Origin: Balanoglossus misakiensis
Taxonomy: Eukaryota > Animalia > Hemichordata
Reading direction: 5' to 3'
Length of the DNA: 64,000 nt
NCBI GenBank assembly: GCA_040954595.2
Contig: CM082597.2
Span: forward strand, 8,142,343-8,206,342
Each line of letters begins with the position of its first letter. The stretch's first letter is position 1. The translations under genes and the position numbers were made by a program. The notes below the pieces were generated by a model. The model made no database searches, was not told the DNA's origin, and was given only the letters and a program-made list of their open reading frames with translations. This document shows positions 8,343 to 61,003 of this stretch, one piece after another.

Positions 8343-8516
8343 CTTGACAACTATGACAGCAATGTCCAGGGTTGGGCAATGGATGTGTGCATTCATGTTT
8401 ACATATCTGTTTGACACAAGTTACAATTCCTTCACTACAGGTACAGATTTCACATTCATCAACAGGACTGGTCCATGTAGAATTGTGGTGATATTCTATA
8501 TTGTTGAATACACAAC
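8343..8516 (-). CDS. Complete VWC domain exon
   Basis: GCVFNNIEYHHNSTWTSPVDECEICTCSEGIVTCVKQICKHECTHPLPNPGHCCHSCQ, phase 1-1, AG/GT bounded. Confidence 0.85.
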
Positions 8517-13482: not shown

Positions 13483-14308
13483 CTGTGTAAAACTAAACAA
13501 AAATAACAACGGATCATTTACAATGAGAAACTGTTTAAAGGTATACGGTCACCTATGGAAAATTAGCAATAGTTACCATGGTAAATTGAGAATTAGCCAA
13601 TCACACATTTTCAGTGGGTGGCACACGCAAAAAAAAAGAGCGCCACCATACGTTCTCAAATATGCCATTTCGGGATATTGAGAGAGGCCACTGTTTAGCG
13701 AGTATTAATTTTCGCGTTCTCTTATTTCATTCACTGCATTGTTATCTTCAAAAAAAAAATATGCAACTTTCTATTTTCATGCTATTTAGCTCTCGTGTAT
13801 TTCGCGAAAATTTATTGCTCGCAAATATAAAGTGTTTTACAGTAGTATTACTAATACATATACACTATTTTTACTCTAAAATTAGACTGTCGACAGTCCC
13901 TCGCGCCTAATGTGTATCGATTCGGCGTTTCGTGCGAGGGCCGTAAGGCCCGTATCTTTTGAGGGTCGAAGGCCCGATTCGGCGTTTCGTGGTGCGATGG
14001 CCGTAAGGCCTCGGGCATGGGCGTGGCCCGAGGGACTGTTATAACTTGTTTCGCCCTCACACGGGCACTGTGGGAAAATGCCCCTGTAAAATTTAGCTGC
14101 AGTTACCATGGTAAATTGAGATCTAGCCAATCACAGATTTTCAGAGGGTGGCACACGCGAAAAAAAAGGCCACCACCATACCAGTATGTTTTTTAGAACG
14201 CTCAAATACTCCATTTCAGCCATATATGGGCGTATGCTAATTGGAGGTGATTGTATACCTTTATTCAGAGATAATGTGGTGTCTGTAACACTAGACTATT
14301 TCTCTTAC

Positions 14309-14464
14309 CAATACAGTCATCTAGACTCTTGCTGTGTCTATCGTGTGTACTGTAACCTGATGGACAGGTAATGCATGAGGTTTGACCAGTGGCAATTTGA
14401 TAAGATCCAACAGGACAGCTAGCACATTCATCTCCTGTATCATAAGTTCCAGCTGTACATGTCA
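14309..14464 (-). CDS. Ephrin-receptor-like (GCC2/GCC3) Cys repeat exon
   Basis: TCTAGTYDTGDECASCPVGSYQIATGQTSCITCPSGYST...SLDDC. Confidence 0.85.
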
Positions 14465-17400
14465 CTACGGTGTAACAGATTAAAAAGACAAAGATCATAT
14501 TAAAGTGAAGGGGTCATCGCGTCACGTTTGTTTGTTTGTTTATAAACATTACAATTCATCCACAAATCCCTGAAATTAGATCATTCTTAGAATGAACAAA
14601 GCAGCCAACCGTAGCGTAGACGGGGCATGACAGCAACTGAAGATCCTAGTAGGTCGTGGCGACTGCAGTGAGGTTTGTGCTGGTATGGGAGGACATATTC
14701 TCATCAAGGGGGACACCCATGCGGCGAGGTAATGTATATTGGATAGATGAATACTTACAACAATAACAGTCACTGAGAATCTTTACAGATGGACAGCAAC
14801 ATCCTGAGAACTCATTAGTTGGGGCTCCTGACAGATTCAATTCTGGACAAGCACCATTTGCATCGATTTTGGTGAGACTGTTGAATTGACTGAACTGAGT
14901 TGTTATTGCACTCATTATACTATCACCGCAGGTTTGGAGATCTAAACTTGTTACGTTGTCTGTCTTTGCAAGTAATTTCATGGCAACTGTTGCATTCACC
15001 TACCGGTATGAAAAACACCAAATAGAAAGTTTGGTTTAATGGATTAAAAGGACACGATAGCTGTAACTTTTGGCTTTATTTTCAGTATTTTCCTTCTGTA
15101 TATAAAACACAGTTTCTTGTTCTACTCCAAACAGTATGTTAATATACCCAGTACTTGACTTATCATATACAAGAAACTGCAGTAGATACACAAAACAAAC
15201 ATACTGAAAATGTAGCAAAAAGATACAGCTAATAGAGCTTTTAAAGGGATTGTGTTTGATACAAGACACCGTTTATGTTATTTTACATGTGGATATATAA
15301 TGAATCAATGTTCGTCCACATAAAACTGTAAAATTTTCCAGCAGGACAGAATAATACCTGATTGGCGTCTACTATGGCCATTGTTGTATAGTCACTTTGA
15401 ACTTCAACACTGTCTTCAATCGAGTTACACAGGACCGACAACAGTGGTTCAACAGACTGCACGATTCCAAGCAGACTTGACTCGTAATATGAGATACATT
15501 GGTTGGTATCACTTGGAATGGTCATCACAGAGTTGTATACACCTCCCACAGTCAGGAAATAATCCGGAACTTCCTTCTCTGTGAAAAGATCAATATGGAA
15601 GAGAATTCAACTTCAGGCAGACTAGTTGAATTGTCAATACAGTTTTTGCTTTACTCAGCTGGCGAAAAAAATCCAAATTTTGCTAATCCACTCAAATCTT
15701 GACTAATGCCATCTTCTATGCGGTAATGTAGGTATTGACTGGTTATAAAATGATCAGTTTATATAAAGGCACATATAGCAAACTGGAAAACACAAATTCC
15801 CTCGCATATCAGCAATATACAAAGAAAATCTGAACCAACAGTAACACTGAATTAGTTGGTTATTTTGGTTCTTCAAGTTTATTATCTACATCAGTATTCA
15901 CATATTATTTTTGGGGCTTAATGAATATTGATATGATATCAGTTCAATTTCAATTATGCAGTAATAGATCAGTAGAAGCCGATACACACCGACACAATCA
16001 GGTACGTAATTATGGGGTAGCCATGTTCCACCAATTATGCAGGTGTACATTCCTCCAGGCGAATCAATTTCTTGAATGAAATCATAACCGGCTTGACAGG
16101 ACAATGCACAGGAGAATCCTGAACCCAGTGGTCCTCCAATAACACGGGTGCAAGTCTTCTGGCCACCTTCTGGTGTAGGTAGTGACCACTCTGGACATGT
16201 ATCAGCTGAATAACAAAATGAGATGTTGAAAGGTGAAATGTCTCATGTCTCAAAACAATGACACATTAACTTCTAAATGCATATCAAGTAATAACCATAT
16301 CATTTTTTTTATCTTATTTATATAGTATCTGTTTAAAGCCTCTAGACCTGCAACCTTTTGCATTATTTTCATGATTTTATTTTCCAACTTAAATTGGGAA
16401 ATCAAAATAAGATTACTGATAGGTACACATGAACATCTCATCAACTTGAGCTGAACACTTACGTTGAACAGAAACATCAAATTGACACTGAGCCTGGTTG
16501 CCACTGTAATCGGTTGCAGTAACAGTCACTGCGATGTAATTCCTGGTTTCAACTGCAGTTCCATTTGGTGGTTCATATATGACGTCACTGATTCCGTGGT
16601 TGTCTACAACAGAGACTCCTGGATATGACACATTGTGTACCACTTCATCAACAAGAATTACGTACGTGTCCGGACAGTCTAAAGTTGGTGGCATGGTATC
16701 TGCAATCCAATAAATATTTCAAAAGATATGAGACTGTAATCTGCTTGGTTTGTAACCACAATACTTGCCAGCCATTAAAGCGACATAGTAATCTTGAATT
16801 CAGCTGGGAGAAGAACTGTTCTGTAGGTGGCTCCATGACAACCCCAATTGCTAAACCACTTAAACATCGTCCTTTTTCCCAGTGATGTCGACAACCACTC
16901 CAATGATGGACCATTAAGCTTTGTGATTTCCACAAATGAAAGCAGGCAGACAATGCATGAAATCAAATCAAATCAAATCAAATCAGAATGAAACAAAATC
17001 AGAATCAAATTAGAATAAAACACAAACAAACATTAAAATCCGATTCCAACATTGGTGATTTCATTCAAGAACTCAATCTGGCGGATAAATTGCTAAGGGC
17101 AAATAAAAAAATATGTGCTGTTCTGATTACATGGTTTTCAAAAATAGGGTAGGTAGGTAGGGAATGTTTTTTATGTTGCATTTTTCTTTTAAATCCTCGG
17201 CCCCTGTAGTGTAGAAGAATAACGTTATAATTCTTACGTGATTCTTGCAATTTTCATAAATTTTGTATATTTGACAATGTTTTTTATACTTCCGGTTTAG
17301 GAAGCTCTAAAAAGTTTAGGGTCGGCGGGTTATAATTAGGGTAGGTCGGGTAATTGGAACAGCACATATTTTTTCATTTTGACCTAATGAACATACCAAT

Positions 17401-41400: not shown

Positions 41401-44400
41401 TTCATGTCTGTTATGTTACATGGCTGTAGACTTTTAGCTGTGTATGATCGACTAATGCGCATGTGCTAAAGCAAAAACTCTGGGTACAAAAACTTTATCA
41501 ATGACACAATTCTGTCTATACAACAGACAATATGGCGGCAACCATAGTCTGTGTTGTAGATTTGGAAAAAACAGCAAATTAAGTGAAAAGAAGAGACAAA
41601 AATAAAGTCTTCTTATATGGTGTGCAAGAAATATGGAAGGAAGCGAAGGCAGTCCACTATTTGAATGCACACACATAAAATTTGCAGATATTTTGATTGG
41701 ACGTTATTTTGTACACATAAATTACGCACATGTGCCTAAGAGTAAGAGGATTGTCGGCATTTAAAACTCACTAACTGTCTGCCAGAGGTTATCATCAGTG
41801 CTTCCACACTGGTACCATGGAACAACTAGAAGAGTCAAAAATAAGACTGAGACAAGATTTGTTGTATTCCTCTGTCTAATTTAGGTCTGCTTTGGACAAA
41901 CAGTGCATTGAGTTTATTCTGTGTGACTGTCAGGTCCCCAATGCATTAAAATAAGTTTGGGAATGGAACAGACCATGTTATTTGTAACATCGAGAAAGCT
42001 CCTTTTTTGAGAAAAATGATTTCATTTTTCCCCACATAACAATTCCCAGGAGTGACACGGGTTTCAGTCTTGGTTTTCAAAATATTCACTGTTCACATTA
42101 TTGTGACAACTTACTTGTAAGAGGTGTCTTAGTTGTTGATGTGTTGATTTTACATTGGATGGCTGTGCTGGCACTGCTTGTTGTTGTTGTTGGGCTCTCT
42201 GTTGTTGTAACCTTTGTAATTGCTGTTGTTGTTGATGTTGTTGTCTTAGTGCTATGAGTTGACTTTGTCTTGCATGTTGATCTTGCTGTTGTTTCAATTC
42301 AATTTCTATTTTTCTGTGCCATCTCTAGATTCTTCTGCAGTGCTCGACTGAAAGATCAAACAAAGAAAAGTGTAAACAGTCAAACATTGTCATGTGTCTA
42401 CCTACAGGTAACATGACTACAGGAGCCTCAGCCAATCCAAGCTTTTCACTTGTGAGACTATTGAAATCAATTTAAAGCTCAGTAACTCCAACTTCGGGTT
42501 ATTTCCTCAATAATTTTGTTTTGGTGGTCACCTTTCATTGAACAATGAATGGGCAAGTGCTTGCTCACTTCTTCAGTGAATTTCACTGTTTGTTTATCTC
42601 ATCATAAAAACTTGGGCACCGCAGTCCTTTGGACAAAAATATTCATGTGCGGTGATTTAAAATCAATGTTGCAAGAAGCAGAATTAATCACAGGATTAAC
42701 GGCTTCTGTTTGAAAAAATACTAAATGCTAAATATGCCATATGCCGCACACAGAGTGATCACATTAGTCAATTGGACCGCTGTTCCAAATTACTAAAATG
42801 ATTGCAACATTTTAATATTATATTTATTTTACAAACCCTTGCATCTGAGCTTCACTTTAAAGTACTTCCATTTACTAGTAGTACACGTACACATCAGTTA
42901 ACATTGACAGCTAGGCATGACATCATAGATGTAGGACTTCAAAATTGACATTCTGAACAGTGGGGGCGCTCTATCATAGTGGGTTTTAATGAACATGTGT
43001 ATTTAATTTCATGAATCAGATATGTCGATGAAAACTGCGTATTTTAACATACGCTTATAGTTAATGCATTTGCAGTATCTAGTCATATTACAGTAATACA
43101 CCAGACATGTTCTTAACTCAACTCAATGTGTGTAACTTGAATTTCTGACCATACTCAGATTACCCAAGTCCCTGTGACCAACTATCCTGCAAGTATACAG
43201 AATTGAACTCCGGAAAAACTAGTCACCTTCAATACTTGAACTGGAGCCACATCCAAAACTTGACTTTGAGATCTTTTATCAAATCAGTTCTCCTTTTAGA
43301 ATTAGAACTCCAATGCAATTTTTGTGACAGGCGAGAAAATTTAAATTGGACACCTGCAATCTGAATAATTTCTTCAGTCCCTTTGGTGTTAGACGGGTTT
43401 GACTGTACGTGAAAGTGCAGTTGATATACACAACAAAAATGCAAAAAAATATAATTGTAGACAGTCAGAATTTTGAGGCTGGGAATCATTTACATAGTTA
43501 CCAGAGTCAATACTGTCACAGTAGTCCATTTCTCTATGTACCAAATTGTAATAAAACATTGCTATGCAGTCATGTTACCCTTCCAAGACGCGAACACGAG
43601 GCCAGAGTAAAAACTTGATCGTCTTGTGTATCAACACTATAGTTGGGACTGACTTTCGACAGCCACATTTTATTGTAAGGTCAGTTTTACACTCAACTTG
43701 TATCATGTATACAACAAACTAGATGAGCTCGAGCAGTACTCTGTAACCTACTGGCCTCCCTTTTCACATTGTCTGCTTGGAGATGACACCTTATTTTGGA
43801 AGTGTGCCCTCTTTATGAAAAAGTGTATAATGTCATAATTCATGAAGTGTTCTGTTACATGTGTAACAGACAGAAATCAACACAAGTGCAGTCAAACCTG
43901 TCTATTGTGGCTAGTGAAGGGACTTTCCTAAACTGGCCATTATACCTGGTAAAAAAGTCAATTAATGTAGATATAAATTACACAGGGACTAGAATAATGT
44001 GGCCACTATATAGAGGTGGCCACACACAGAGGTTTGACTGTATGTTAATTTGTGCCATGAATAGCAGACATTTACCAATGACAGTACAATGTATGATTTC
44101 AGTGTCACATATCCATGTATTAGACACTTACATTGTACAAACACATACATCTTACTTTCTCTCCAAATTGTAGATACTCACCAACACGTGTATGTTGAAT
44201 CCTGGTCTGCAACCACACTGGTAACGGGCTGGTGTGTTGTAACATACTTGTTGGCATGGCGACCAACCAGCTTGATCGCACTCATTGTCATCTGTGGGGA
44301 AAACACAAATATCATAAATTGTGTTTGAATGAATACATCTGAATTACAGTTGTCCTTGAGTGCACATTTGAAAATATACGACAAGAGAAAAAAATTGAAA

Positions 44401-44853
44401 GAAACTTAATAAATATCATCTGGCATATAACTTGGTCATATCATATGTTTATCTGTACCAGTACTGTATACTGATGAACAAACAATGTAGTAACCACATT
44501 ACATTTTACAAGCTAGTGTTCTGCAAGCCAAAACTATCACACACGAGACAACAAACTCAATTTGTTTTAAATGTGTAACTTTGGAAAGTGCCTGATAACT
44601 TGTATTTATTATTTTTTTTACATGGTGACTCGCTGTAAAGTCTGTCACTTACAACTTGTGTAAGCGCCCTTTTGAGGCAGGAAATTCCAAGCCATTGTTG
44701 GCCTATCCCCTCCCCACTCAAATAAAAACTTACCTAAACAATTGACATGATCTGCACTCATAGAGAAACCATCATCACCACAACAACAGCTGAATCCACC
44801 CTCTGCATTGAGACAACCTCCAGCACAGACAGAATCTGAACACTCATTCACAT
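14309..44853 (-). CDS. SVEP1-like mosaic extracellular protein gene: EGF-CUB-Sushi-EGF-Sushi-mucin-expansin-mucin-expansin-mucin-HYR-Sushi-ephrin-receptor-like repeat (partial, some lesions)
   Basis: About 30 co-oriented GT-AG exons, mostly phase 1-1, listed individually below. No start/signal-peptide exon or stop exon was identified. Whether all exons form one transcript is inferred from phase compatibility. Confidence 0.7.
14759..15578 (-). CDS. Two exons (15358-15578, 14759-14999) of an unnamed Cys-containing linker module, repeat 2
   Basis: EKEVPDYFLTVGGVYNS... / VNATVAMKLL...CCCPSVKILSDCYC; phases 1-0 and 0-1; resembles module at 17960-18949. Confidence 0.7.
15990..16205 (-). CDS. Sushi/CCP-like exon
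   Basis: DTCPEWSLPTPEGGQKTC...CALSCQAGYDF...YTCIIGGTWLPHNYVPDCV, 216 nt. Confidence 0.8.
16463..16699 (-). CDS. HYR domain exon
   Basis: DTMPPTLDCPD...VVDNHG...YEPPNGT...VTVTATDYSGNQAQCQFDVSV, canonical HYR pattern. Confidence 0.9.
17397..17495 (-). CDS. Short exon: RKRR motif plus C-terminal end of a Sushi domain
   Basis: AAVEVVRKRRDVSEQSSYLTNAQWNGTAPVCI, 99 nt, phase 1-1. Confidence 0.6.
17960..18949 (-). CDS. Two exons (18714-18949, 17960-18221) of the unnamed linker module, repeat 1
   Basis: DRDVPDYCAQLSVSYNGS...DNS / LLMDVGLNL...FCCPEGFELFQNVRC; phases 1-0 and 0-1. Confidence 0.7.
19078..21048. mobile_element. ~2-kb non-autonomous DNA transposon with subterminal inverted tandem repeats
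   Basis: CAGAGGT...ACCTCTG termini, ATGGTG on both flanks; ~110-bp tandem units at 19470-19790 inverted relative to 20570-20855. Confidence 0.75.
21334..22560 (-). CDS. Thr/Ser-rich mucin-like stalk exons (21949-22560, 21334-21435)
   Basis: Open Thr-rich frames bounded by AG/GT, lengths 612 and 102 nt (phase 1-1). Confidence 0.75.
23107..24644 (-). CDS. Expansin-like module copy B (exons 24502-24644, 24005-24223, 23107-23443): DPBB domain + CBM63-like domain
   Basis: NAT...DGTCSFG...ANFQDSH|VCGQCLNV...SVVVRVTDMC...LVLSEDAY...VSYSVVACP...IKFK|FAES...DHRYPVTTVEV...WITLDR..DNLF...PLNVKVYSVSGK...DTSKQF, collinear with microbial EXLX expansins; intact frame, phases 1-0-0-1. Confidence 0.85.
24812..25749. 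mobile_element. Tc1/mariner-pogo-type MITE
   Basis: ta|CCGTATATTCTCACAAATAAGCGCCA...TGGCGCTTATTTGTGAGAATATACGG|ta. Confidence 0.85.
25908..26310. repeat. Minisatellite-like array of palindromic AAAATTCAGCTGAATTTT units
   Basis: Repeated CAGCTG-centred palindromes with an internal ~100-bp direct duplication. Confidence 0.75.
26664..27272 (-). CDS. Thr-rich mucin-like exon between the two expansin modules
   Basis: 609-nt phase 1-1 exon inside ORF 26362-27324. Confidence 0.8.
27348..27428. repeat. (CATA)n microsatellite
   Basis: About 20 perfect units. Confidence 0.95.
27749..29097 (-). CDS. Expansin-like module copy A (exons 28955-29097, 28437-28655, 27749-28079)
   Basis: Near-identical to copy B with about 10 amino acid differences counted by eye; same intron positions; intact frame. 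Confidence 0.85.
30191..31581 (-). CDS. Thr-rich mucin-like exons (31282-31581, 30191-30349)
   Basis: Phase 1-1 exons; internal 33-nt VHTD-type repeats; 3' end of 30191-30349 duplicates 3' end of 26664-27272. Confidence 0.7.
30378..30741. mobile_element. ~360-bp TTAA-flanked palindromic MITE family B (AGGGACAAAGTCTCTCTC...)
   Basis: TIRs plus TTAA; copies at 3758-4102, 5026-5375, 6560-6897, 33056-33413, 55300-55650. Confidence 0.85.
31791..34617 (-). CDS. Four Sushi/CCP exons (34399-34617, 32800-32994, 32389-32571, 31791-31970)
   Basis: C..P....G...C..GY/F.L.G....C...G.W....P.C patterns; the last exon is a partial Sushi running into a Thr tract and has a weak or mutated acceptor. Confidence 0.8.
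33484..34280. mobile_element. MITE with G/C-tract TIRs
   Basis: GGCTGCATTCACAAACACCTCTGGAGGGGGGG and its reverse complement. Confidence 0.85.
35524..36643 (-). CDS. Two calcium-binding EGF exons (36515-36643, 35524-35709)
   Basis: DINECSTLVALCG...; [29 protein letters not shown]...SCV with a long insertion before the last Cys. Confidence 0.85.
36010..36428. repeat. Three near-identical tandem copies of a ~142-bp unit
   Basis: TTTACTAGACTGAGCTATGTG...AAAGGTCATTCCAAAAA repeated three times; derived from a dispersed repeat also at about 17630-17860. Confidence 0.9.
37120..39008 (-). CDS. Sushi/CCP exons (38903-39008 truncated, 38506-38685, 37613-37795, 37120-37302)
   Basis: Canonical 4-Cys/Trp Sushi patterns; first exon breaks off at a TTAA MITE end. 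Confidence 0.8.
38097..38406. mobile_element. TTAA-flanked MITE family D (AGCCTCTAGAGCTGCCA)
   Basis: TIRs; another copy at 58863-59190, partial at about 16332-16440. Confidence 0.8.
39744..40765 (-). CDS. CUB domain (exons 40581-40765, 39744-39928; frameshift near the end)
   Basis: GTIQSPGY..YPDDVMCSWLI...FGLE...DYII|VYNG...IGPWSG...SVVFRS, with the terminal KGFRASF motif in a shifted frame. Confidence 0.85.
42115..42347 (-). other. Low-complexity (CAA)n-rich exon-like segment: Gln-rich/LxxLL in one frame, Thr-rich in another
   Basis: ttcag...gtaagt bounded; no frame is open end to end. Confidence 0.4.
44182..44853 (-). CDS. Two calcium-binding EGF exons (44734-44853 intact; 44182-44291 degenerate 3' end)
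   Basis: DVNECSDSVCAGGCLNAEGGFSCCC...NCL; DDNECDQAGWSPCQQVCYNTPARYQCGCRPGF, lacking the sixth Cys in frame. Confidence 0.75.
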
Positions 44854-47800
44854 CTGAAAATAGAGAAAAAAAAACATCCATTGTAATTATTCAAGTCAAT
44901 ACCAATCCTCCCTTCCATTAACAATTTCCCTAAAGGGAACAAATTCACATGGCTTTGAAATTAAGTATTAACAGTGATATTTTAATATTTCTAACAGACA
45001 CGACTTTTCTAAACTTTGAGTCTCTTTGTGGATTTGTAGAAATTATCTACAAACTGAGCTGTCAGGTCATGGCTGTTTGTGCTTTGGCATGCACACATAT
45101 CCCAGAATGCCCAACAGGGTTGGTAGTGAAATTGATAAACTCTTCACCTAAGATTTCAAACTCGTAGATCTCAATAGATTCTCACACTCTTGGCATGCTG
45201 AGAGTGTGGGATCAGATCGTGAGAACAAATCAATCCCACATTCTCACTGAATCGAAAGCTGTATATGACGCGAGTGCTGATTGGATGACAAAGCGTTATT
45301 TAATAACGTGCGCTAAATGTTATCCAATGACGTGATACAGAAACTACAATGTGCCAGATGACAGTTCAAGATGTTTTAAGACTAATTGGGCTAATTTATG
45401 GCCATGTGAGAAATATAATCTCACACACCAAGGACCTGGGATCATATTTCGCACACTCGTCAGGGATATTTTGTCCCACATTTGCCTGCAGCTTGTTTGG
45501 GACAGAAAATCCACAATTCATGTGAGAAATATGAAATTTGTACAGTCCTATGAACCTAAAACATGAAACAAAAAATGTTTGCTTGTTGGTAGTTTCCCGG
45601 AACAATTAAAAACCGCGTCTCCTCATCAATTTTGACATTTTGAAAGATGCTAAACAAAACTCATTTTTTGGCCTTATCGGTAGCAGAGTGACGTCATTTT
45701 CTGGGTAGCCAGAACTCACTTCCGGCACAGCATTTGGGTGTTTCACATTTCTCCGTTGTTGCTGGCTTATCTGTCGACAAGCAAGGTAACGTAAATAAGG
45801 GATTTATAAGTGGCCGTGACAGTGACCTTCACATAAGACTTCTTGACCCTATGACCTTTCATGTGATGAGCAGTTGCCAAAATAACTTTCTCTTTGTGAC
45901 CAATCCAGGCCGAACACTTTTCTATTCTACTACACAGAACAAACTAAACGCAAAGTAACTCATGAAGGAAAACGCTGACAAAATCTACGCCTACCAGTAA
46001 TTTTCAAATCAGGTAACTGCATATGGATTTATACAAATTAATTGAATATTGCCTTTGTGGTTGTCTGATGTCAATTTTAATTGAAGAGTTGTTGTGTTAG
46101 AGTTAACTTGCGTGAATTTCTTGCCTTTCATTCTGACAGTCAATTATAATTTGAGGATGCAGCTCCCACTTCTAGATTGAAAATATGAAATATTAAAAAT
46201 ATATGTATTTATATTTTAATGTAAAACACTATATCACAAGTCATCCTTTTACCAGAGGTGGGCCAAACCGTAAAGGAAACTGGGAACAACCATTCAATGC
46301 TCAGATATTTGGATTGACAACTCTACTCTTTGCCACAATATTCAATTTCAAACATTTTTGAATACAGTAATAAATGCATTTAATATTGCATGTATTAAAT
46401 TTTGCTATTTTACAATTTGGGCCAGTGAGTGAGCATTTCAAAAAAAGAAAAGTCACTGTTTGTTCCTTTGATTTGTGTATCATTTGATCACTGCAACCTT
46501 ACACTTTCATTGACGAGAAGTGTCAAAACATCCACAGGTCTATTCATTGAATGTGAGGTGCAAAGCTAGAAATGGAGATGTTACAAGTAGTGCACGAGCG
46601 TCGTATGTGGAAATCTAATGGTTGGAGGAGAGAAATAAAAATCGCATTGTTTGTTGTTTGCACATGCGCACAAAGTCATTAAATATGGCGTCCTTCATGT
46701 CATTTCGGGAACGATCGCGATCGTCGACGAAAAAAGTTGTTGCATCTGCCTCACGAGAGCATCATCTCGTTTTGACAACTCAAAATCGTATGCCAAACAC
46801 TTAGGGGCATGTTTCGGAGCCGTGCTGAAGGTATGAGTGGCTATTTGTGCATGACGTGCAAAGCAAGTATTAGAAAGTTTTGCGAGGATCGATCGTTGGA
46901 CTTCAGCCACTTACTTGACAAAAAAGGCCAGAAAGGTGGAAGTAAAGGACAAAGGCAGTATGGGGGACAACGAATAAAACTGGCAAGGTGGGAGAGTTCT
47001 TCATCAACGTCGTCGAGTAGCTAGGAAATAGGCAGCGAAGGTTCCGGCTGTGACTACCGGAGTTGGTTATCTGCGGCAGGTGCATGTGGATTGCTGCCAC
47101 CCGATGTCATTGTCAGTATTCTCCATCACGTAAATGTCACTGATATTGTGAATTTCACATCAACATGTTCAGTTCTGCATACATTTCGAGCTGATGCTAT
47201 AATTTGGTGTCAGAAATGTATTCATGATTTTCCAGAGAAGTATGCCACACTGATATATCATAAGGCAGGCTTTTTTGATAACACCACATCATGGTTTGAA
47301 ATTTACAAATTATCGAAATTTTCTGATCTCAACCACCAAAATGACACACAGCAATATTTAAGTCAGATCAAATCACTGTCTGTTCAAATGAATAATGCTT
47401 CACGGAAATTAATGACCTGAAGGAAAAGTTGGCAGAAACATAAAAATCTCTCAGTGATATTTTGACCATGTCACCATCCAAACCACTCACAGTAACACAA
47501 GAAAAAATCTTCAAAACTATGACAGTAGTTAAAGAAATAAGGAGTTTGGATGGAACCATAAAAGCTGTTAGTTCCAGAGGAAGACCAAAAGTGTATATTG
47601 CAATACCCCAGACAGAAACATCATCGATAGAAGCTACAGAAAGAACAAAAAGAGCCAAGTGTCAGCTGATGGAGAAAATTGAAAAAATGCAGTGTGTCAA
47701 CAAAAATGAGAGTGGAGAACTTAATAAAGCAATTTAGTTGCTCAACATGCGTAAAGAATAACCCGAGACAAAGATATCTACATCAAGGCAGCACAAGAAG

Positions 47801-48420
47801 CCGGTATACCAGTACAAGGAACATTTTCCAGGGAAACAAGTTCTTGCTTTTAAGAGCATAATGCCAATGACAACCTGGCAGCTTTTGAAGCATACATTCA
47901 AGATGGAGCTCGGTGTTGATGTGCCAGGAACAGAGAGGCAGTTAAGACAGGAGCTAGAAGAGATGGAGTTTAGCTATGAATACGGAAGTTTTGAGAGTGA
48001 AGAGGAAGGTGGACCAATTACAGTCCTTTATGTGCGAGTTGCAGATGTACAAGAAGTTCTTCATAAAATGGTTGCAGAGTTCAAGGCAAATGGAAAGCTG
48101 ACAAATTTTGACAATATATCAAGAGACACACTGTGGCTTTGTGTATCTGGTGACAAAGGTGGCAACTCTACAAAACTGATGTTACAAGTCATGAACAATA
48201 AGACTCAGCATTCTATTAAGCAGTCTAAACTACTGGGTTTTATTTGAGGGTGGACATGATACCCGAAAGCATATGACATGGTGTTCAAAGATATCATTGC
48301 TGACTTATGCAAGTTGCAGACAGAAATCGCAGAAATGAAGCTGGAACTGCCTGAAACATTTCAGTGTGACAAAAGAACACGGAGCCTGGGATCACAAGGT
48401 AAATTTGTAATTTCTTCTGC

Positions 48421-49413
48421 TTAAGGTAGTTGGAAAGGCTATTTTTGAAGCAAATTCTCTCAATGTTTTGAATTTATTTTCACAAGTTAGAATAAAGATA
48501 ATGACTTGAAATTTGCAGCATGTATTCTTAACAAACTCAAAAGTGAGGGAAAAATATGACTGTAAAAATATCTGCTAAAATTATGAAATTTGATACGCCT
48601 AAATATAAATATTCATAATTTTACAAAATATTGATTGAATCTTGACATGTTTACACAAATTATTGAATAATTTGTATTCATTTTAATATTAAGCAACCCC
48701 TCCAGCAATGTACGGGACACTTTCAGCATAAACTTATTTTTTTCAAAGTTATCACTCAGGAAAACACAGTTTTTGTTGATATTTTGTATACAACTTTAAC
48801 GTGCTGCCAAAACACAACGGGAAAACTTATGAAAAAACTGTCCCGTAAAAGTGTTCTTTGGGATGTCCCGAGCCTTTCCTGAAAGTTTCATGATAAAAAA
48901 ATAATCTGGCATACCAATTCAATCACAAATAAAAACCATTACATTATGGCGAAGGGCAGAAAAGTAGCGAAATACGCAAAGTTTAGCGGCAGTTCACGGC
49001 GAAGGATCGCATTTATCTGGGTCAAACGCTTTTCCGCTGGCTTTTCGGGTTCCCTAGAAATGCAAAAATGTCCATAATTTGGCAGCCTTTAATAAACAAG
49101 CAAGGTTATCTATCGTTGAAAATTGCAAGAATCAGTGTTTGCAAGTTACATTTAAATGCCCTTGGCTAGGGGAACCTGTCCTTGTGCGCATAGCCTAGGA
49201 GAAGTCTTCCCCTAGAGGGCGCTCAAATAAGGCTCCCTAGCTTCCTTGCCAGATGTATGAAATTAGGTATAATAAAACCAGCCATATCTTGTTACACGTT
49301 TATTGCCCCGAATTTTTCATGAGTTTAATTTTTCTCTAATACATTTCTAGATATAAATTCAGTGTTTTTAAATGAAATTTTAACTGACGCCCTAGCCTTT
49401 CCAACTACCTTAA
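48421..49413. mobile_element. TTAA-flanked non-autonomous DNA transposon (Kolobok/piggyBac-type target site) in the transposase intron
   Basis: ttaaGGTAGTTGGAAAGGCTA...TAGCCTTTCCAACTACCttaa. Confidence 0.85.
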
Positions 49414-51019
49414 TGTCACTAGTCACTACTTTGAAAATTTACCCGGATTTTTATGATAACACAGCAAATGTATATTAATTTGGAAATGTTTTCATTACTA
49501 GTGCCAACAAGTGATGGAGAACTACATGGACTGGATTCAAACCACTGCGACCCTTCAATGAAGATAATCAGACTGTCAGTGTTAATTGTGCGTACTGTAA
49601 GCTGCAACATGGTAAGCAAATTGACATCACCCAATTAACAATAAATGTAGTGTAAATAGGAAAAAAAATGATAATACAAATAATTATCAACACAAAAGAA
49701 AATATAAAACCATAAACATACTTGCCTAATAGATTATCAGCAATTATTGTCACAAATGTTCTCTGTTTCAAAAGAAACTACAGTAATATGTGCAGTGGTG
49801 GATGCTAACCAAAATTAGTTTCCTAAAAGCTGTTGTAGTCAGCAGACATGTTTTTTTTTACATGTTACTGTTATAACCATGATTGTTTACATTCTACTTG
49901 TCAAATAACCTTTATTCAAATTTTGTGTTTTATTCTTTTAACAAGCAAAGTGAAAAAGTGCAGCCCACAATGTGCCCAAAGTTCAGGACAGGCAGTTGAC
50001 AGTGAGGAAACGCGACCATTATCTCCGGGGTGTAGAGAATGTGCAACAATGGATATCGATGATGATCAGCTTTCTGCATCGCCGTCTATCTACACTCAGT
50101 GTAAAATTAGCTGGTGGGGAGTCTGGGAATGGCTTGCAAGATTGATAGGAATAACTGGTCCAAATGGGAGATACTTTTGTCTTCATTGTTACTGTACCCT
50201 CTCTGATTTATGCAAGGGTAAACCCCATGCATATCACATTCTTGATAAATATAAAGCGCTCTTTCCTGATTCCGCTCCAGCAACATTTGCACTGAGAACA
50301 TTTCAGGACTTAGAAAGACATTCAGTGAACTTTACCAGTACAGCTAATGCAAAAGCTTACAATCATTATAATTGTGAAGCACTTCCTTTGATTCAAACCA
50401 CTGGTTTTATTATAGAGAATTTAACAGTGACACCTCTTCACCTGTGTCTTGGCATTGGGCTGATGATACTGAACCTGATTGAATCTATGTGTCTGGAATT
50501 AGATCGGACATTTTTCAGTGAGAACGTTGTACATTCTGATGAAATGGAAACATTGCTAGAAAGTCAGAGAAAACTGTCAGATGACTTACTCTCTTCAGAA
50601 AAAGAGCTAAATTTGCTTGAAGAACAAAGTCATGAAATTCAAAAACACATAGATGATGTCATGGAAGAGTATGCAAACTATTATGAAAAGTAAGGTGGGA
50701 AGTTAATTGACAGGTCAAGTGATGCTAAAGATGCCAGAAGAGAAAAAACACAGAGGGAAAATGCTTTACTCGAGAAACAAAAACTAATCAAGTTACAACT
50801 AAAACATGTTAAAGAACAACACAAATTAACAGATAATAGTCTTCAAAATGTAATAACAAAACTGGCATGTGTAACTGGTCCATTCAAACAGAAGCTTAAT
50901 GCCTCCCTTGATAGTTTTAACCTCAAACGATGTGTCTATCATTCTGGGGCACTCACTGGCCCTGATGTCCGAAAAATTTGTTTGAAACAAAACATCAGAA
51001 AGATTTATAGTGTGTTTAA

Positions 51020-51814
51020 GATGGGTCCCTAGGATCTTTTTGCCCGTTGCTATGGGCCTTTGTAAGACATTACACCCCGATTTGGACTAAGCCGTTTTCA
51101 GAGTCTAACAAGGGGCTGGTAACTAGTTGAAAATCTGCACGATTGTGAGCGCGCGCCCCCTGACGCCATTGATATGCAAATTAGCTAGGTCAAATTTCAA
51201 AAGCCTAAGGCTTTTTATTCCGTGACCTCAAAAACGAACTTGATACGTATTCATTAGTTGCTTGAACCAGGGAAGATCGTGACGGATTTTGTTTTCAAAT
51301 ATTATCGTTGTATCCTACGATTTCAGCATACCCGTACCACACCTGAAAAAGTAATCGATTTTGGGTGTTTTTGGACGCACTCTTCCACCGGTATCGCTTC
51401 TTAGCACGACGAAAACCGAAAAAACGATCCGTCACACTGTGCGGAAGTGCGTTCTCAACAAGCAGGTCAAATTTGACTGGCGTACGTGGCCTATGAAAAA
51501 AGCCTTAGGGATTTTCGTGAACGGTACAAAATCTCTGTGTACAAAACATTGGATTTTTGGCGTTCGATCCAGTTACTGTGGTTACAGGACGCGCACGCTA
51601 TCGCTGACCGCTGCTTTGCCGTATTAGCGTGGCGGCCTATGGCCGGGCGGTAGCTGCCGTAACCATACTCGGACAGGGGGTGTGCACACAATCATGCGTA
51701 TTTTTAACTAGTTACAAGCCCCTTGTCGGACGTTCATAACGGTTGCGATCAAAATTGAGTGTAGTGTCCTATAAAGGCCCATAGCAACGAGCAAAAAGAT
51801 CCCAGGGACCCATC
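51020..51814. mobile_element. TTAA-flanked MITE inserted in the transposase coding exon
   Basis: TIR GATGGGTCCCTAGGATCTTTTTGC.CGTTGCTATGGGCCTTT; TTAA at 51016-51019 and 51815-51818; excision restores SVFKPALFKTG in frame. Confidence 0.9.
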
Positions 51815-54778
51815 TTAAACCTGCCCTCTTTAAGACAGGTAGTGGTGATAAGGTATTTAGCTGCCATGCCATGGCTGTCAAAGTCTGCACACTACTCACA
51901 AAATTCAGTTTGATATATGATCTCATGATGGCAAATAGACCACTTTGTAAACATGAAGTTGAAATTTTGGCAATAAGGTGCACAAGTTTTGGGAATTGGT
52001 TTCCTGTTGCATTCCCAAATGCAAACCTATCAAGGAAATTCCATGTGATGACTGTAGAAGTTGTACGCAAAGAAAGAAATTTGCAAACTGTTGGCATGGA
52101 AACTGAACAAGTAACTGAAAGTATCCACTGTTATATTAACAAACTAAACAGAATGTATGCAACTGTACAAAATACAGCTAAGCGACAAGAACTTCTTGTC
52201 AAAACACACAATGTATTCAGTAACCCGGGTCTTCCTGATCTTGCTAAGACCAAGCCCACATAAAGAAGATGACATAGGACAAGTCACTATGTAGCTGTTA
52301 GTCTGTTACAGACTTTAAGTGTATGGGAACATACATGTACTTTATTGAACCCACTCTGCATCTGAAGTGTATGTAATAAAAGCATGTGATTGTTACTTAA
52401 AATACAGTGAGGTGTGATTTTCTTGTTTGCATTTTGGTTAATGTTACTTTGTCTGTTCTAGACATTGTCATTGTTTTTGTTTGTTTTGTTTTGGAGTGAA
52501 TGGGCAATGAATGCAGCCTGGTCAGAAGTCTGAGTCCCAAATGTTTGAAGTTGTCATCCATGACCTAAGAAAAAGTGGAGCAAACCATAGACGGCTTCTG
52601 TTGCAGTGATTCAAATACTTTGAGATGAACGGTCGACCCAGCATAAACAGCATATACAACTTCAGCACCGAAGTTTTCTGAGAAAGATGACAAAACTTTA
52701 TTTTTCCATATTTTTAAACAAACCTGACCCATTAGAGTTACCAAAATATGTTAAAATTTCTTTGGATGTTGAACGGTTTTTCAACCCAATATTGGAAAAA
52801 ATCTTAGGAACCTAAAATGATCTCATGAATATTAATGAGCTTGAGTTGTGTGAAGTTAATCAGATCCACCGTATATATATTCCTATGTAAACTGTCAACC
52901 ACAGTTAAGGTGTTTTCGACTGCCTATCGTGTACTAAAGTGTGTAGAATAATATCACACTACGAAATTAGAACTCTGAATCAGGCAATATTATTATCATT
53001 TTGCGTTTTTTTCGGTACATCATCCGAGCTGTTGATTAATTACTATAATTTGTAGGAACATACATTCAGAACGACTGCATCGCATCGGCGCTAACGCGGA
53101 AGCGAGTTACCGCTGTTAATATGTAAACAGATCGACATCGGCGATGTAAACGTGGCGAAATTTACATGGATATTGAAGGGGTTATTTTATTCTTCACGGA
53201 AAATATCGTTTTCGGCGTTATAAAGTCCGTTAAATTTTGAATATTTAATGAGAAAGTGGGAAAATGACGTTTTTCTGCACTTCCGCACTCGATCTTCTTC
53301 AAATTTTCTGTGTAAGCATTCCTGAATTTTGGCCTTATCATCCTGGGCATTGATTAGTTCAGATTTTGGATCAAAGCCTTATATATGTAATAGAGAATCA
53401 CCGACCCCGAGGGGGAGGTGGTTCTCTAACTTAAACCACGATCCCCCACAGACATTGTCACCATTGGAGCTTTGTGTGCCACAAAGACGTCGTTTTACTC
53501 AACGATTCAATAAAATGAACGAACAAAGGCTTATCAAAAGAGGCTTATTCTTCATTGCTGACTGTGAAATTTGGTTGGCCACCCCTTTTCCTATAAATGA
53601 ATCATGTCGTGGGCAGGGAGTTCTAGACCGCCCTGCTGGGCCTTACAAGATCGCCCACGCTTGACAGGTGTTACTCTAAATGTTCATACTTACGTGTCGG
53701 AGTGATATGCTCATTTCAAACTTCAATTTGCATCAAATTAAACTTTACAGGTGTGTTACGTACTGTATTATGGAAAGGGTTACAGCTATTGGGGTTTTGC
53801 GTGCACATGGTAAGCTTACGCGAAAATGTTCTAGGCCAAATGCAGTAGGCCTACATGTAAGTGTCACGTTTTTTTTTATTTTCCTTCAAATGTCCATGAA
53901 ATCGATCTGAAGATACATGTAGTTCCGATCTATATCATCTGCGAAAACAAGCGGCTACATGTTGGTAAAGCAAAAACCGGGTCACAATGCTCTACATGGT
54001 ACTACTGCCCGTCTGTGTATTGGCCTCCCTGGCTTTTGAACGAACCACTCTCTACGAGCCACAGCGGCAACGCGTCTGTATGGTAGCGATATTGGTGAGT
54101 AACTCATCTGCGAAAAGACTTGATACCGAAGTGAATCCGTCCGACATTACAAACCCACGTCTGGTGAACAGCAACAAAAAGTAAGCAGAATTTTGCAAGG
54201 TACGCGGGTTTTGTTAAACAGTAGGCCTAAAACAGCCAACCTTGTTACATGTCGGTAGTGAAGCAAAATCGAAGTGAAGCATCTGGTTAGAGTAATACAA
54301 GCAAAAATGGGGATAATGTGATTTAGTATAATTTTCTAGAAATTTGTAGTAAATTTATTGCAACGTTAGTTTGTTTCTGGTGAATTGATTTTTGTCTATT
54401 TTATACTTTTATTATCATGTTATGAAGACTCTCGAGAGCCACCAAGACATTAGCTTTGTACGTCAGTAGACAAAACTGTGAATGTGAAGCATTGAATGAA
54501 ATGATCCGGAGACTGTCGCATATCCAGTTCGCTTTCAATTAACATAACAATTACTCTATTCAAATGAAATGTACTTTGAATACAGGTATAGAAGTAAATG
54601 TAATTATGCAAATAAAGCATTGTGTATTTGTATTTTTGTTACGACAGGTGAGACTGAGTCCTGCGGTAGTTCTAGAACCCCACGTTTTTCCCATTGTGCT
54701 TTGCGTGACAATAGGGGTCATGCAGGTCATGGGCGATCGATTAGATTGTCAAGGCGCTTATGGCGGCGAACGCTCGTG

Positions 54779-57700
54779 TGAGGTGAGATCACAACAAGTG
54801 ATGACTCATAGAGGAGGAAGCACAGCATGTGATGACTCATCTAACTTGTCCACTTACCTAGACATTTAGGACAGCACTGCCCTGGTACACTTGCAAAATT
54901 AGAACATGTTGTGGCTTCACACACTGTTAAATTACAAGTCACAGTACCATCCTGTAAATACAAATTATTTAATGGGTTATTATTATAGAAATTATGGACG
55001 ACCATTGACCCTGACCCTGACCATTGATACTTTTAATAGTAAAGGAATGTATGTGTGCACCAATGTTCATGATGCATGTAGACTAGACAATGTTTCTCCT
55101 ACGTGTATTAGTGGAACATTTTTGTTTTGGTTTTAAGGTCTCTGTACGTATGATTTTTATTTTGTATGCATTTTTCCACAGCTTATGCGTACAGTGTAGG
55201 TAACTCGAAAAAAAAAAACCTTAAGTCTTGGCATGAACACACTGCGTGTGCTTATAACCCTCAAAGCCAAAAGTGCTCGAACACAAGATGTATTCTTCAT
55301 TAAAAGGACAAAGTCTCTCTCTCGCAACCCTTTATCCATTAATAATGTTTGATACAAGACACCGTTTATGTTATTCTACATGTGGATATATAGTGAATCA
55401 ACGTTCAACCACCCACAATTTCTATCCCGTTTGTAGACACGAGAGTGAAAAACTCGCCGAAATAAATAATTGGTCTCTACCATTTATCCATTTTGGGCGA
55501 GTTTTTACTCTCATATCCTTCAAACGGGACGGAAGTTGTGTGTGGTCGAAAGTTGATTCACTACATGTATATATCCACATGTAGAATAACATAAATAATG
55601 TCTTGTATCAAACATCATTAATGGAAAGGGGCAGCTAGAGAGAGACTTTGTGCAGTGATGAGAACTTACCAGACACAGGCAGGATCTACACACATCACCA
55701 AGAGGGTTGAAGAGATCACCATCAGCATACAAGATATTATTGTATTCACACAGACTACAGTCTGGACAGCAATCAGAAGCTGTGTACAGTCCATGCTCAC
55801 ATGTTACTGGACACTCTAATTCTGTACAGGTAATCTTGGAATCAGGCTGAAAGAGGAACGACAACAATCAGGTTCATACTGTAAAACAGTTTACTTTCGC
55901 GAGTCGAAATTTTCACGATATCGAGAGAGGCCACTGTTTCCCGAGTATTAATTTTCACATTCTCTTATTTCATTCACTGCATCGTTATCTTCAAAAAAAA
56001 TGTTATGCGACTTTTTATTTTCATGCTATTTTGGCTCTCGCATAGTTCGCGTAAATTTATTGTTCGCGAAAATAACATGTTTTACAGTATTTTGTAGTAG
56101 AAAACAGACATAGATATGACTAAACTCCTGACCAGTAACCTTAAATTGTTTGAGGTATGTACGAGGTCAGATCTACATAGTCGACATCCAACACATTCTC
56201 AAAAAAGTGAAGTCTGCTCCAAGGGTTTGCATCAAGCAATCAGTTGCACCTTTTGTTTAATACACAGAAATGACTGAACTGTGAAGAATTTGACCAATCA
56301 GAAATCTTGTTAGATCTGTGCTACTGCATTCTGTGTTCTTACCTGACAAGTACAGCTCTGGCATGGACCATTCCTCTTAAACCACGTCTGTCCAAATGGA
56401 TAGCTGATTCCGGAAGCATCTACACATCCCGGATGTTGGTTGCACGTCGGGCAGCATTGTCCGGGCAGGAATGTCTGAAACTTGATTGCACAGGGAAGTT
56501 CTGGACACAGTACAGATTCACATCTTATTTGTCCATCCTGTAATTAAACAATTGCAGATTGCTACTGATGCAATAAGGACAAAACAAATAATTCTTTGTT
56601 TTGCGTCTTTCCATAAGGTACTATACTTATACCAAGTTGCACAATGATCACTTCACAGATGGTGCGAAATCATTGCAGACACATGCATGGACGGAAGGAC
56701 AGAAAAATTGATTTACTCTTTAAGTTTCCGCATTCCAAAGCATGAACTAACAACACAATTAAATTTTGGAAGTCAACTGCTGTGGCTGAAATACATTAAT
56801 ATCAGATGGAACTACAGACTGAAGTAAAAATCATAATGACTATACAACTGCCATTGAAGAATGCAATAAGGCCAACATAAATAAATTCTTTGTTTTGCGT
56901 CTATTCATAAGGTACTATACTAATGCCAAGTTGCACAATGATCACTTCACAGATGATGCTGAAATCATTGTGGACATACATGTGCATGGATGGAAAGACA
57001 GACAGACCTCTATAGGGGGAACTGGGTTGAGAGGGTGAATAGACATGTACTTACTGAACACCAACAAATTGTACAGTTCTGATTGGTTGGTTTTAACGTC
57101 TCACCACTTTGAAATTCATTACCATCAAAGAAACAACTTGCTGGGAATATACAATAAAAAGATAACATTGCAACATAATCAGCAAATGATAGACATAATG
57201 GTTAGAAATACTGTATAGTACCAAATTGAACTCCAATGTACATTGATCACATACTGTAAAACACTTTATTTTCGCGAGCAATACATTTTCGCCAAAATAG
57301 TGTGAAAATAAAATGTCGCATAATTTTTTTAAGATAACGATGCAGTGAATGAAATAAGAGAACGTGAAAATTAATACTCGCGAAACAGTGGCCTCTCTCG
57401 ATATTGCAAAAATTTCAACTTTCGAAAATTAAGTGTTTTACAGTTGTAATGCCATGTTTGGACAACCAATTCAAAATCTCTACATTATTTTTTCTTCTTC
57501 CAATTGCAAAGTAACAACAACATACAGTATGACATTTTATGTTTTACTATTCACCAATCTGATTAAAATCAGATGTAGGGAACAGCGACTTGGTTTTTCT
57601 TATGCTGTCGCCTCACACTACATCTGACCAACTCTCAATGGAGATCCCGCTGAACTCTACGAGATTTACTGGGAATATAAACCAATTAGAAGGCGCCTTA

Positions 57701-60700
57701 TAGCAAATGATAGGCAACCCACAATCACATGACCTGGCCCCTTGCGGTTGTTACCATGGAGCTACCACAGACATATATCTCGGGCGCGACAGTCGAATCA
57801 GCGTGGGGAATGGTTTCGAGCCAGTTCAGCGTGACGACTGAACCTCTATATTCCACCGGTCAACGAAATGTATAAGACGTGGCAACAAGTCGCAGTAAAA
57901 TTGTTAGAGAATCGATTACATTTGTGTAAGGCCGTCCCAGAGAGAGATTCTGTCGCCACGATCGTTTGTATACACCAGAGTGTACCGACCGACTGCATAG
58001 TGCACTGACTTGACTAGCTCTGCATGCAGGTCTGTGTGTTCCCGGCGTTACACAGACGTTAGAATAAGTTAATCGCATCATATTTGGGGTCAGTTGAAGT
58101 AGACAGGGAAAGGATTTTGCACAGATTTCGACAGAAAAAGCTGCGGTCGGGCGTCCGGGTCCGGAACGCAGACGCACCAGTTTTGTCTATGGGGCCTTAT
58201 GCAGGGCTGTGGTGCATCGGGAACACACAGACCTGAACGCGGAGCTATGACTTGACATTTCTTAGCCGAAGTTAGCGTTCTTTTTAAAAATTTGTCACAT
58301 AAATTGTTTTGGGATACATGGCAGTGAAATTTGGTTTATTTTTTATTAACTTTTACATGAAGTACGTCATTTTCCCCGACTAGCAGCATGACTACGAGGG
58401 CAAACATGACGACTTGTTAGGAGAGTTTGTAAATGATCCACGACAGTTCATCATGTGTATATGGCTACAGCTCGACGTTGCACTGCTCTGCGAAAAGCAC
58501 TCGCATACGATGACGCCAAACAAAGAAAGATATCATGGGATTACATGTAATTGTTCACAAGAGAAAGCCAATCTGTCGTATTCTGTGCGATACTCGAAGT
58601 CAACAACAAAATTTCTCCCATCTCCCAGTGCAATTCTTTAGTCGGCATAACAGTCATTCTGATTGGCCGGGTCGGAATGCGCGATTTCAGCGGGATCTCC
58701 ATTGAGAGTTGGTGAGATGTAGTGTGAGGCGACAGCATAAAAAAAACCAAGTCGCCGTTCCCTACACCTGATTTTAATCAGATTGACTATTCACTACATA
58801 TCATTAGATCAATCAGTAGATTTCTGTCACCTTACATATCTCTTCCAGTAACTGCAGGAGATAAAGCCTCTAGAGCTGCCACTTTTGCATTATTTTCATG
58901 ATTTTATTTTCCAGCTTAGATTGGTTCATCTAAATAAGTTTCTGATTGGTATACATGAACACTTTATCGATGCCTGATTGTGGCTGTATGTAGCGATTCG
59001 AAAACATAGACATGAACATCCATACAGACAGTACGCAGCTATTGTGGTATGCGTCACCAAGAGATGACAAACTGATGCAAATACAAGTTACATGGCTTAA
59101 TGGTGAGAATTTTAAAGGATAGGGAAAAGGTTTGAAGTATTTTATTGTGGAAAAAAAATGTGTGAAATTTGGCAGCTCTAGAGGCTTTAAATGTTATGGT
59201 AAGATCCACATACTGAGAATGCGGAAGAAATGGTTCTCAATATTTCCCTGAAGTTCGGAAAGACTAATCAAGAGAAAATTTCAAAGTCACCTTTACAGAC
59301 CGGACAGCATGGTCCCTGAATGGGATTTGCACACGTCACCAAAGGACAGTCGTGAACCAACACATCACACTGCCTTTCTGGAACAGAGAAAAATACAGAT
59401 CATATGAAAGGAGATGCTTCAACATTGTGGAACTGGTCACCAAATGGTAATGAATTCAACACAGTTCGATCACTTCATGGTGATTCTCTTTCTGACCAGA
59501 GGAACAGTGACATGTGATCAGAAATTGACCAATAAGAATGCAATCGTAAGTATAAATGTATCTCATGTGATCAGAAATTGACCAATGCAGTCTGTCTGGT
59601 ACTTACCAAACATTGACATTGTGAACATGTGTTGTTCGGATCAGTAAATATTTCACCGTCATTAGAAATATAACCATTGTATAAACATTCTGTTGAAAAG
59701 AAATAATGAAAAACATTATCAGGGTAGAGGTCTTGGAATAAAAAAATTACATTAAAAATTGCAATTAAATATATGTTGGCACATTTCTTGCTACCTAATT
59801 AAACCCCGGTGCGGAAAGTACTGGGGTTCGGATTAACGTGTGTTTGTATAGTTGTTTATTTGGGAGTGGTCGTCGTGCATAATGACTGTGTAATTGCTTT
59901 CATGTACATGTACACATAAAATAATTGAACACTTTACACCTCCACGCGATTGACAGCTGTTTGAATAGCGTGGTTATTGTTTCTCAGGGACGCTTCTGAA
60001 AAGCACTGAAACCAGATTTCTCCCAAAATCATCGTTGTTTCAAAAGCTCGTGTACTTTTTCGTCGATAACTTTATGTTGTGTGTTTATAAAGCCAAATAC
60101 TGTCGTTGTGTGGTGTAATTCTTTATGCTTGGACCTGTTTGGACCGATTTTCATAGAGCCAAGATCGTTGGTGTTGTCTGCTGTCAGTCAAACGGCATTA
60201 AGATTCGCCACCGGGATTTAAACAATAGTTTGTTTGTAAACTGTCTGTGTTTGGACATTGCTGAATTCTTAGGGTCAGGATTAAATTTAACCATCAACAA
60301 TAACAAGGCTGGGTATATGAAAGATAACATTTTGTTATTTTAATAGCTGAATGTAATTTTCTTTCAAATTTAACCGACCTGGAAATGGATTTAAGTATAC
60401 ATATCATTCCATGGTAGCACGAGTTTCTGCTTTACTACAAATTCATTCTCCCAATCCTGACTAGATTTGAGATGCAGATCATCCTTATGTAAATAAATGC
60501 TTCATCAATAAACTTGATGACACAACAGATCTAACTACATGTGCGGTTACCTTAACAACTATGACAACAATGTCCAGGGTTGGGCAATGGATGTGTGCAT
60601 TCATGTTTACATATCTGTTTGACACAAGTTACAATTCCTTCACTACAGGTACAGATTTCACATTCATCAACAGGACTGGTCCGTGTAGAATTGTGGTGAT

Positions 60701-61003
60701 ATTCTATATTGTTGAATACACAACCTATAGCACAAAAAGATTCGTTTGGAATCAATTATTCTTTGGAAATAATTACCAAGAGCTTTATAATTTTGATTAA
60801 AACCTTACCACTACTGGGCGTCATACCCGTTTAGAGTGTCAGGGGCCCTTAAAATATATATGTGCCCTTTTTCTTCTTAAAGGTATTTTGACTGTCTTGG
60901 CATGGCTCTCTAACGTACTTAAACACACTTGGCAGTCTGAGCCCCCTGTAAAATGTACCATATCGCACTGGTTTGCACTGTATTGGTCTGAGGGTCTTGT
61001 ATA
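54779..61003 (-). pseudogene. Partial second copy of the VWC gene
   Basis: Approximate exons: 60551-60725 (CAA>TAA stop), 59607-59690, 59291-59378 (frameshift), 57055-57140, 56343-56537, 55670-55846, 54858-54951. 54779-56020 matches 4499-5740 and 60388-61003 matches 8180-8794. Confidence 0.8.
57555..58785. mobile_element. Non-autonomous Mutator-like element
   Basis: Long TIRs starting CAATCTGATTAAAATCAG.TGTAGGGAAC.GCGACTTGG; exact 9-bp TSD ACTATTCAC (57546-57554, 58786-58794). Confidence 0.85.

Follow-up and report, generated by a model that had tools for sequence, protein, structure and literature searches.

A FAM60A-like zinc finger and an F-box ahead of the DDE core of a dead Chapaev-like transposon in Balanoglossus misakiensis

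The locus considered here raises the question of how a zinc finger resembling that of FAM60A/SINHCAF could have come to stand at the N-terminus of a transposase, and what it could do there. The preliminary description had proposed such a finger at 46685-47024 once two one-nucleotide shifts were mended. The window (the whole 64,000-nt stretch of DNA analysed) carries the head of the element on the plus strand, where the peptide is translated from three forward-frame pieces (46685-46737, 46735-46818, and 46818-47021), and both frame changes between them are one-base losses. In the features given below, P0002 is an unbroken 1,099-aa chain from ENA (a cluster of 31 sequences), and X1 and X2 are two of the three sequencing runs, all of one sample, that contain the stretch as contigs.

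46685-46737, plus strand: likely start codon and basic leader, ending at the A6 run with a putative one-base loss (translation; aligned to KPKCC of P0002)
46735-46818, plus strand: FAM60A-type C4 zinc finger, first half (Cys codons 46738 and 46747; Pfam PF15396, profile positions 13-42)
46821-46934, plus strand: second half of the finger (Cys codons 46848 and 46857), helix, and LLDKK tail, with a one-base loss near 46821 (aligned to P0002 77-112)
46935-47090, plus strand: basic, Ser-rich linker with a premature TAG at 47022-47024 (GAG in X1 and X2)
47091-47222, plus strand: F-box (PF12937, E 4.8e-5, 23.5 bits; PF00646, E 0.0012)
47223-47760, plus strand: helical linker and GRP segment (47579-47587), with a frameshift near 47397 and stops at 47441 and 47735 (colinear with P0002 200-370)

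The finger was borne out by both the translated pieces and the Pfam match. For the 30-aa middle piece, FAM60A (PF15396) was the single Pfam family at E ≤ 1 (E 1.1e-4, 22.8 bits), and the 65-aa open stretch holding the first half-finger gave E 6.2e-5 and 23.5 bits; these scores come from the half-finger only and lie below the gathering cut-off of 27 bits. The second half scanned alone against Pfam gave no FAM60A match. As a control, the 125 CxxC-bearing stretches among the 1239 stop-free window stretches of at least 30 aa were scanned, and a FAM60A match at E ≤ 0.01 was obtained for one of them, namely the element's finger. The gap between the second and third zinc cysteines in the window is 98 nt, and one added base turns it into 33 codons; the FAM60A-like spacing claimed earlier is thereby confirmed, as the zinc ligands of human FAM60A are C16/C19 and C53/C56 (excerpts of PMC3463326). 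Use of the ATG at 46685 rests on the alignment with P0002 (KK-SCC against KPKCC), since the A6 shift is unmended in the X1 contig. An Atlas search with the window half-finger returned only unnamed bacterial clusters with scores below 0.8.

The connection of the finger with a transposase was provided by P0002. A 131-aa query from the catalytic region, holding no head sequence, matched 3 of 557 protein candidates, P0002 among them, and this protein carries the FAM60A finger at 47-127 (PF15396, 41 bits, E 2.8e-10), an F-box at 158-201, and DUF1280 at 388-551 in the same chain. The fusion of finger and transposase, claimed in the preliminary description, was thus demonstrated in an intact relative with a single ORF joining the finger to the DDE core. 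The two outcomes named there as speaking against the claim, a lack of significant FAM60A profile hits and intact relatives devoid of the segment, were not what was found, because P0002 passes the PF15396 cut-off and has DUF1280. Moreover, its PF15396 match extends beyond the cysteines to profile position 95, and the three acidic motifs (GDKGG, GGDW, and ExxxESIH), presumably catalytic, are in place together with CMHC. The window is colinear with P0002 from the finger to the C-terminus at 28-45% identity (145/512 identities over the N-terminal half, E 1e-47), and the alignment of the two fingers scored 107, whereas 5000 shuffles reached 59 at most. For the head of P0002, both Atlas clusters among the matches listed were FAM60A (0.79 and 0.78), which serves as a lead only. 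P0002 itself could be a domesticated gene.

A third head was available in L002, an internally deleted copy in which the finger, F-box, GRP segment, and GGDW follow in order. FAM60A was the best Pfam family for its finger, below the cut-off (E 0.0085, 16.5 bits), and its zinc cysteines are 38 residues apart, compared with 33 for both P0002 and the corrected window. Thus, the finger and F-box were present in all three elements with readable N-termini and FAM60A was the top family for each finger, with the PF15396 cut-off passed by P0002 alone; four further relatives (P0001, P0003, L001, and L003) are partial, do not cover the head, and were excluded from these counts. The P0002 and L002 heads share 32% identity and all three are strongly divergent from each other, so the head module is old in the lineage. 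True kinship of the finger with FAM60A is considered very probable.

The copy in the window is dead. Related copies in the sequencing runs carry an extra A behind 46821 (in one X1 contig, at a depth of 133.5 out of 783.1 in total, and in an X2 loose end) and an extra C behind 47397 (one X1 contig); in both X1 and X2, T>G at 47022, found at full depth, converts the premature TAG into a Glu codon, and T>C at 47441 converts TAA into CAA. Since the missing bases and mended stops are present in these copies, the stretch from the finger through the linker and F-box to the GRP segment once formed one frame. At the same time, the X1 contig spanning the A6 run (46730-46735) has no added base (0 gaps), and no mending of the shifts near 47760 and near 47836 was seen in X1. 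The related X1 copies are therefore broken too, and a single ORF in the lineage of the window rests on P0002. The unevenness of the variant depths points to several copies or to a pool of individuals. No RNA runs were listed among those containing the stretch.

The F-box between the finger and the core had no place in the preliminary description. Its position is the same in the window, P0002, and L002; with a PF12937 cut-off of 24.3 bits, L002 lies above it (29.2 bits), and P0002 (24.1) and the window (23.5) lie just under it. This F-box likely binds Skp1 and would thereby recruit Skp1-Cul1 (the SCF ubiquitin ligase). The GRP segment, for which a comparison with PDB sequences gave no match, we take to be the likely end-binding domain by its likeness to the nonamer-binding domain of RAG1. 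A query composed of the half-finger, linker, and F-box matched none of 519 candidate proteins of 351-2000 aa, which is weak evidence. PDB sequence searches gave no match for the finger or the core, and the best row for P0002 was the F-box of FBXW7 at E 0.38. The two AlphaFold models were of low confidence (pLDDT 36.7, and 47.8 for the head), and Foldseek with the poor head model (pLDDT 47.8) found no match at E ≤ 0.001 (best Z 3.3). An NCBIfam search gave no match.

The catalytic part was delimited mainly against P0001, a partial Ptychodera flava protein model that is the closest protein (66-73% identical to the window core) and the only match of the window core query among 747 protein candidates.

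47761-48398, plus strand: first part of the core with DUF1280 and the first Asp in GDKGG at 48149-48163 (PF06918, 57.5 bits; 69% identity to P0001)
48399-49501, plus strand: putative GT-AG intron holding a nested element (gap relative to P0001)
48421-49413, no strand assigned: nested 989-nt element with 21-nt perfect inverted ends and TTAA on both sides, within the putative intron
49502-49611, plus strand: short putative exon with CxxC (71% identity to P0001 250-277)
49946-51015, plus strand: second part of the core with CxxC (50178-50189), PLHLCLG, a long coiled coil, and a stop at 50691-50693 (66% identity to P0001, 33% to P0002)
51016-51814, no strand assigned: nested 799-nt high-copy miniature element with 145-nt inverted arms and TTAA on both sides, breaking the coding frame
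51815-52263, plus strand: last part of the core with KFH, EQxxESIH (52105-52128), and the stop codon (45% identity to P0002 945-1078)

The DUF1280 scores of the window, P0001 (80.3 bits), and P0002 (68.4 bits) are all above the PF06918 cut-off of 25 bits. The first part of the core is interrupted by frameshifts near 47760, near 47836, and at 48245-48273, two putative introns lie within the element, and 13 additional bases are present at 49516 in related copies. The position of the second catalytic Asp is occupied by Val in the window (50121-50123), where P0001 and P0002 have GGD; the Glu of EQxxESIH is the probable third catalytic residue, judged by analogy. The architecture of a finger, F-box, GRP segment, and DDE core is almost certain. 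The start of P0001 matches the stop-ridden frame at 47692-47760 of the window, so that this copy, ~30% diverged in protein, may have changed frame near the same point; a shared old lesion, a gene-model error, or a real recoding site may lie behind it.

Both nested elements are non-autonomous, with TTAA flanks and ends beginning GG or GA, features that presumably fit Kolobok. One X1 contig joins 48419 to 49409 and so represents the empty site for the 989-nt element. Empty sites for the 799-nt element, the depth of which is ~300 times that of its host element, occur in X1 and X2, and without it the coding frame is continuous. A long coiled-coil insertion between CxxC and the last catalytic motif (P0002 750-890; window 50500-50900) is common to the window, P0002, L001, and L003, and a CxxC...CxC motif is found at the C-termini of P0002 and L003.

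Patterns from the core alignment found five loci among 251 metagenome candidates and none among 25 viral candidates; patterns from P0001 found none among 97 metagenome candidates or in the single viral candidate. L001 and L003 cover the C-terminal core only, and L004 and L005, matching over only about 37 residues, were set aside. The core relative in L003 (323-1864; 27% identity, 57% GC, one stop) lies on a metagenome contig, and the lineage may reach beyond animals. Around the window element, the best score for terminal inverted repeats (27) fell within the range of 30 shuffles (23-34), and no CAC/GTG pair with a matching target duplication was found. The candidate ends 46227/52409 were rejected, as they match at 11/15 positions without a duplication and contigs of both X1 and X2 run through 52409.

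A gene with VWC and EGF-like exons runs antisense to the element, which occupies one of its introns. The minus strand of the window at 85-61042 holds the exons of one large extracellular protein gene, or of two, with many VWC repeats and EGF-like and ephrin-receptor-like Cys-rich domains.

8326-8547, 11229-11372, 14268-14513, 44170-44300, 44715-44860, 54844-55032, 56313-56543, and 60555-60755, minus strand: examples of these exons (VWC/EGF-like/ephrin-receptor-like)

A 1,227-nt duplication of 96.6% identity (54779-55999 and 4499-5723) overlaps VWC-coding stretches and a palindromic repeat.

The explanation towards which we lean, with some reserve, is that of a dead Chapaev-like element equipped with a host-derived FAM60A finger for chromatin docking and an F-box for SCF recruitment. 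The finger was probably transferred from host to transposon; the proposed mechanism of finger and F-box, built on analogy, is evenly balanced between acceptance and doubt. According to it, the finger, likely taken from a host FAM60A gene, would likely dock the transposase on chromatin, and the F-box would likely bring in the SCF ubiquitin ligase of the host via Skp1. SCF would then eliminate a host factor of silencing or chromatin close to the transpososome, or limit the level of the transposase itself; the DDE core would work by the cut-and-paste reaction of other DDE enzymes. In Chapaev and RAG1 the place of the pair is taken by Chapa or NZD plus a RING E3 ligase, so this slot likely kept its finger and ubiquitin-module job with new parts.

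A different origin, which seems unlikely, would make the finger the transposon's own single-zinc (ZFa-like) form of Chapa/NZD, with FAM60A sharing its ancestry or domesticated from it. Such an origin agrees with the N-terminal position of the finger, where Chapaev has Chapa, with the high divergence of the three heads, and with a single-zinc ZAD-like ancestor proposed for Chapa and RAG1 NZD, both of which bind two zinc ions (excerpts of bioRxiv 10.64898/2026.01.24.700457). However, no match to the RAG1 N-terminus or ZAD was found in Pfam or the PDB, neither Pfam family being listed for the three heads. By sequence, P0002 and the window head have no matching two-zinc Chapa ligand set, nor an N-terminal His for a second zinc site; L002 has one His at this position. 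Furthermore, FAM60A is conserved from flies to humans (excerpts of PMC3463326) with a C-terminal Sin3/HDAC domain that is missing in P0002, and FAM60 occurs 0 times in the available text of the preprint. A wider conjecture, more speculative still, would derive the FAM60A, RAG1, and Chapaev fingers from one single-zinc module moving between hosts and transposons; this lineage would have kept the single-zinc state and rebuilt the finger and ubiquitin-ligase head of RAG1 with an F-box for RING, and FAM60A would perhaps be a domesticated transposase head.

HDAC recruitment by the finger, an earlier idea, is unsupported as stated, because only the N-terminal half of FAM60A is matched (profile 13-95 of 206) and the C-terminal Sin3/HDAC-binding TYWKR (Motif-1) is absent from P0002, with only a Trp look-alike in the window. 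It is accordingly doubtful that the head recruits HDAC1/Sin3 for self-silencing or for insertion into repressed chromatin. Each half of FAM60A brought down HDAC1, HDAC2, RBBP4, and RBBP7, but most Sin3/HDAC binding is carried by residues 149-221 and TYWKR, which is crucial for it, and the 1-148 fragment failed in immunoblots (excerpts of PMC13254352). K22, inside the finger, cross-links to K90 of HDAC1 (excerpts of bioRxiv 10.1101/2024.01.16.575949), so a contact with HDAC may occur nonetheless. Finger Cys mutants lost promoter binding and kept SIN3-HDAC co-precipitation (excerpts of PMC3463326). In the window, a Trp and a Cys-Gly stand just before the F-box (47052-47090). Their spacing, as we judge it, resembles a FAM60A C-terminal block, but the segment keeps only the Trp of TYWKR and aligns with plain pre-F-box linker in P0002; a second FAM60A block was rejected here, being missing from P0002 and having no Pfam match at E ≤ 10. 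Since the Cys mutants lose promoter binding and Sin3/HDAC binding is mainly C-terminal, chromatin docking is the likelier job of the finger, which by analogy would bind chromatin or DNA and would not require Sin3.

A likeness to FAM60A acquired by convergence, without kinship, conceivable as short Cys-rich domains match easily, two of the three heads are below the Pfam cut-off, and the Atlas scores are below 0.9, is very improbable against the 41 bits of P0002 over 81 profile positions, the first rank of FAM60A in three of three heads, the Cys spacing of 33 in P0002 and the corrected window, and the absence of FAM60A matches in the 124 other CxxC stretches of the window.

The job of the N-terminal finger and RING of RAG1 is still open, and another finger with another ubiquitin-ligase module in the same slot of a related lineage suggests that the pairing serves transposition itself, an idea made testable by the unbroken P0002. 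The element is also a candidate F-box-carrying transposase beyond the Zisupton precedent, and the little-studied FAM60A finger is met in a further context, separate from the half that binds Sin3. No description of a FAM60A finger combined with an F-box and a Chapaev-type transposase was found in searches of openly accessible papers.

Compared with FAM60A/SINHCAF, the elements share the N-terminal C4 finger (C-x2-C-x33-C-x2-C) and basic tail, corresponding to profile 13-95, but have no match to profile 96-206 and no TYWKR, the finger being followed by an F-box and a transposase. An F-box beside transposon domains is known from a Zisupton (KDZ) transposase isoform and from Caenorhabditis F-box A2 genes, which adjoin such domains; these belong to other transposase superfamilies and have no FAM60A finger, and the available text of PMC12062965, where they are described, offers no evidence from its own data that transposons have captured F-boxes and leaves Chapaev, DUF1280, and FAM60 unmentioned. 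The likeness to Chapaev (CMC/CMCT group) consists of DUF1280 above the cut-off, a domain corresponding to Chapaev transposases (excerpts of PMC3985635), of a DDE layout in which C(2)C falls between what are, by analogy, the second catalytic Asp and Glu, and of an N-terminal zinc finger. Chapaev proteins have a Chapa finger, joined in two subgroups by a RING as in RAG1 (excerpts of PMC4411706), whereas neither a two-zinc Chapa nor a RING was detected here; no RING family was found in P0002 at E ≤ 1 in Pfam, and a FAM60A-type finger and an F-box take their place. As to the motifs and ends of the Chapaev group (excerpts of PMC12730594 and PMC3014272), the CAC...GTG ends were not found, and the second His of H(3-4)H is mostly replaced, being kept in one of four covering sequences (L001). 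The lineage, whose heads are without the second zinc site and RING, is filed as Chapaev-like, not canonical Chapaev. Membership in the RAG1-like group was rejected. No sequence match to RAG1 or Transib chains was found in the PDB, and an F-box stands instead of the RING, for which an E3 role in RAG1 is indicated by reference titles in PMC4411706 (excerpts). No RAG2 partner was seen either. The element shares with RAG1 and RAG1-like proteins the overall plan of a finger, a putative ubiquitin-ligase module, a probable end-binding segment, and a DDE core.
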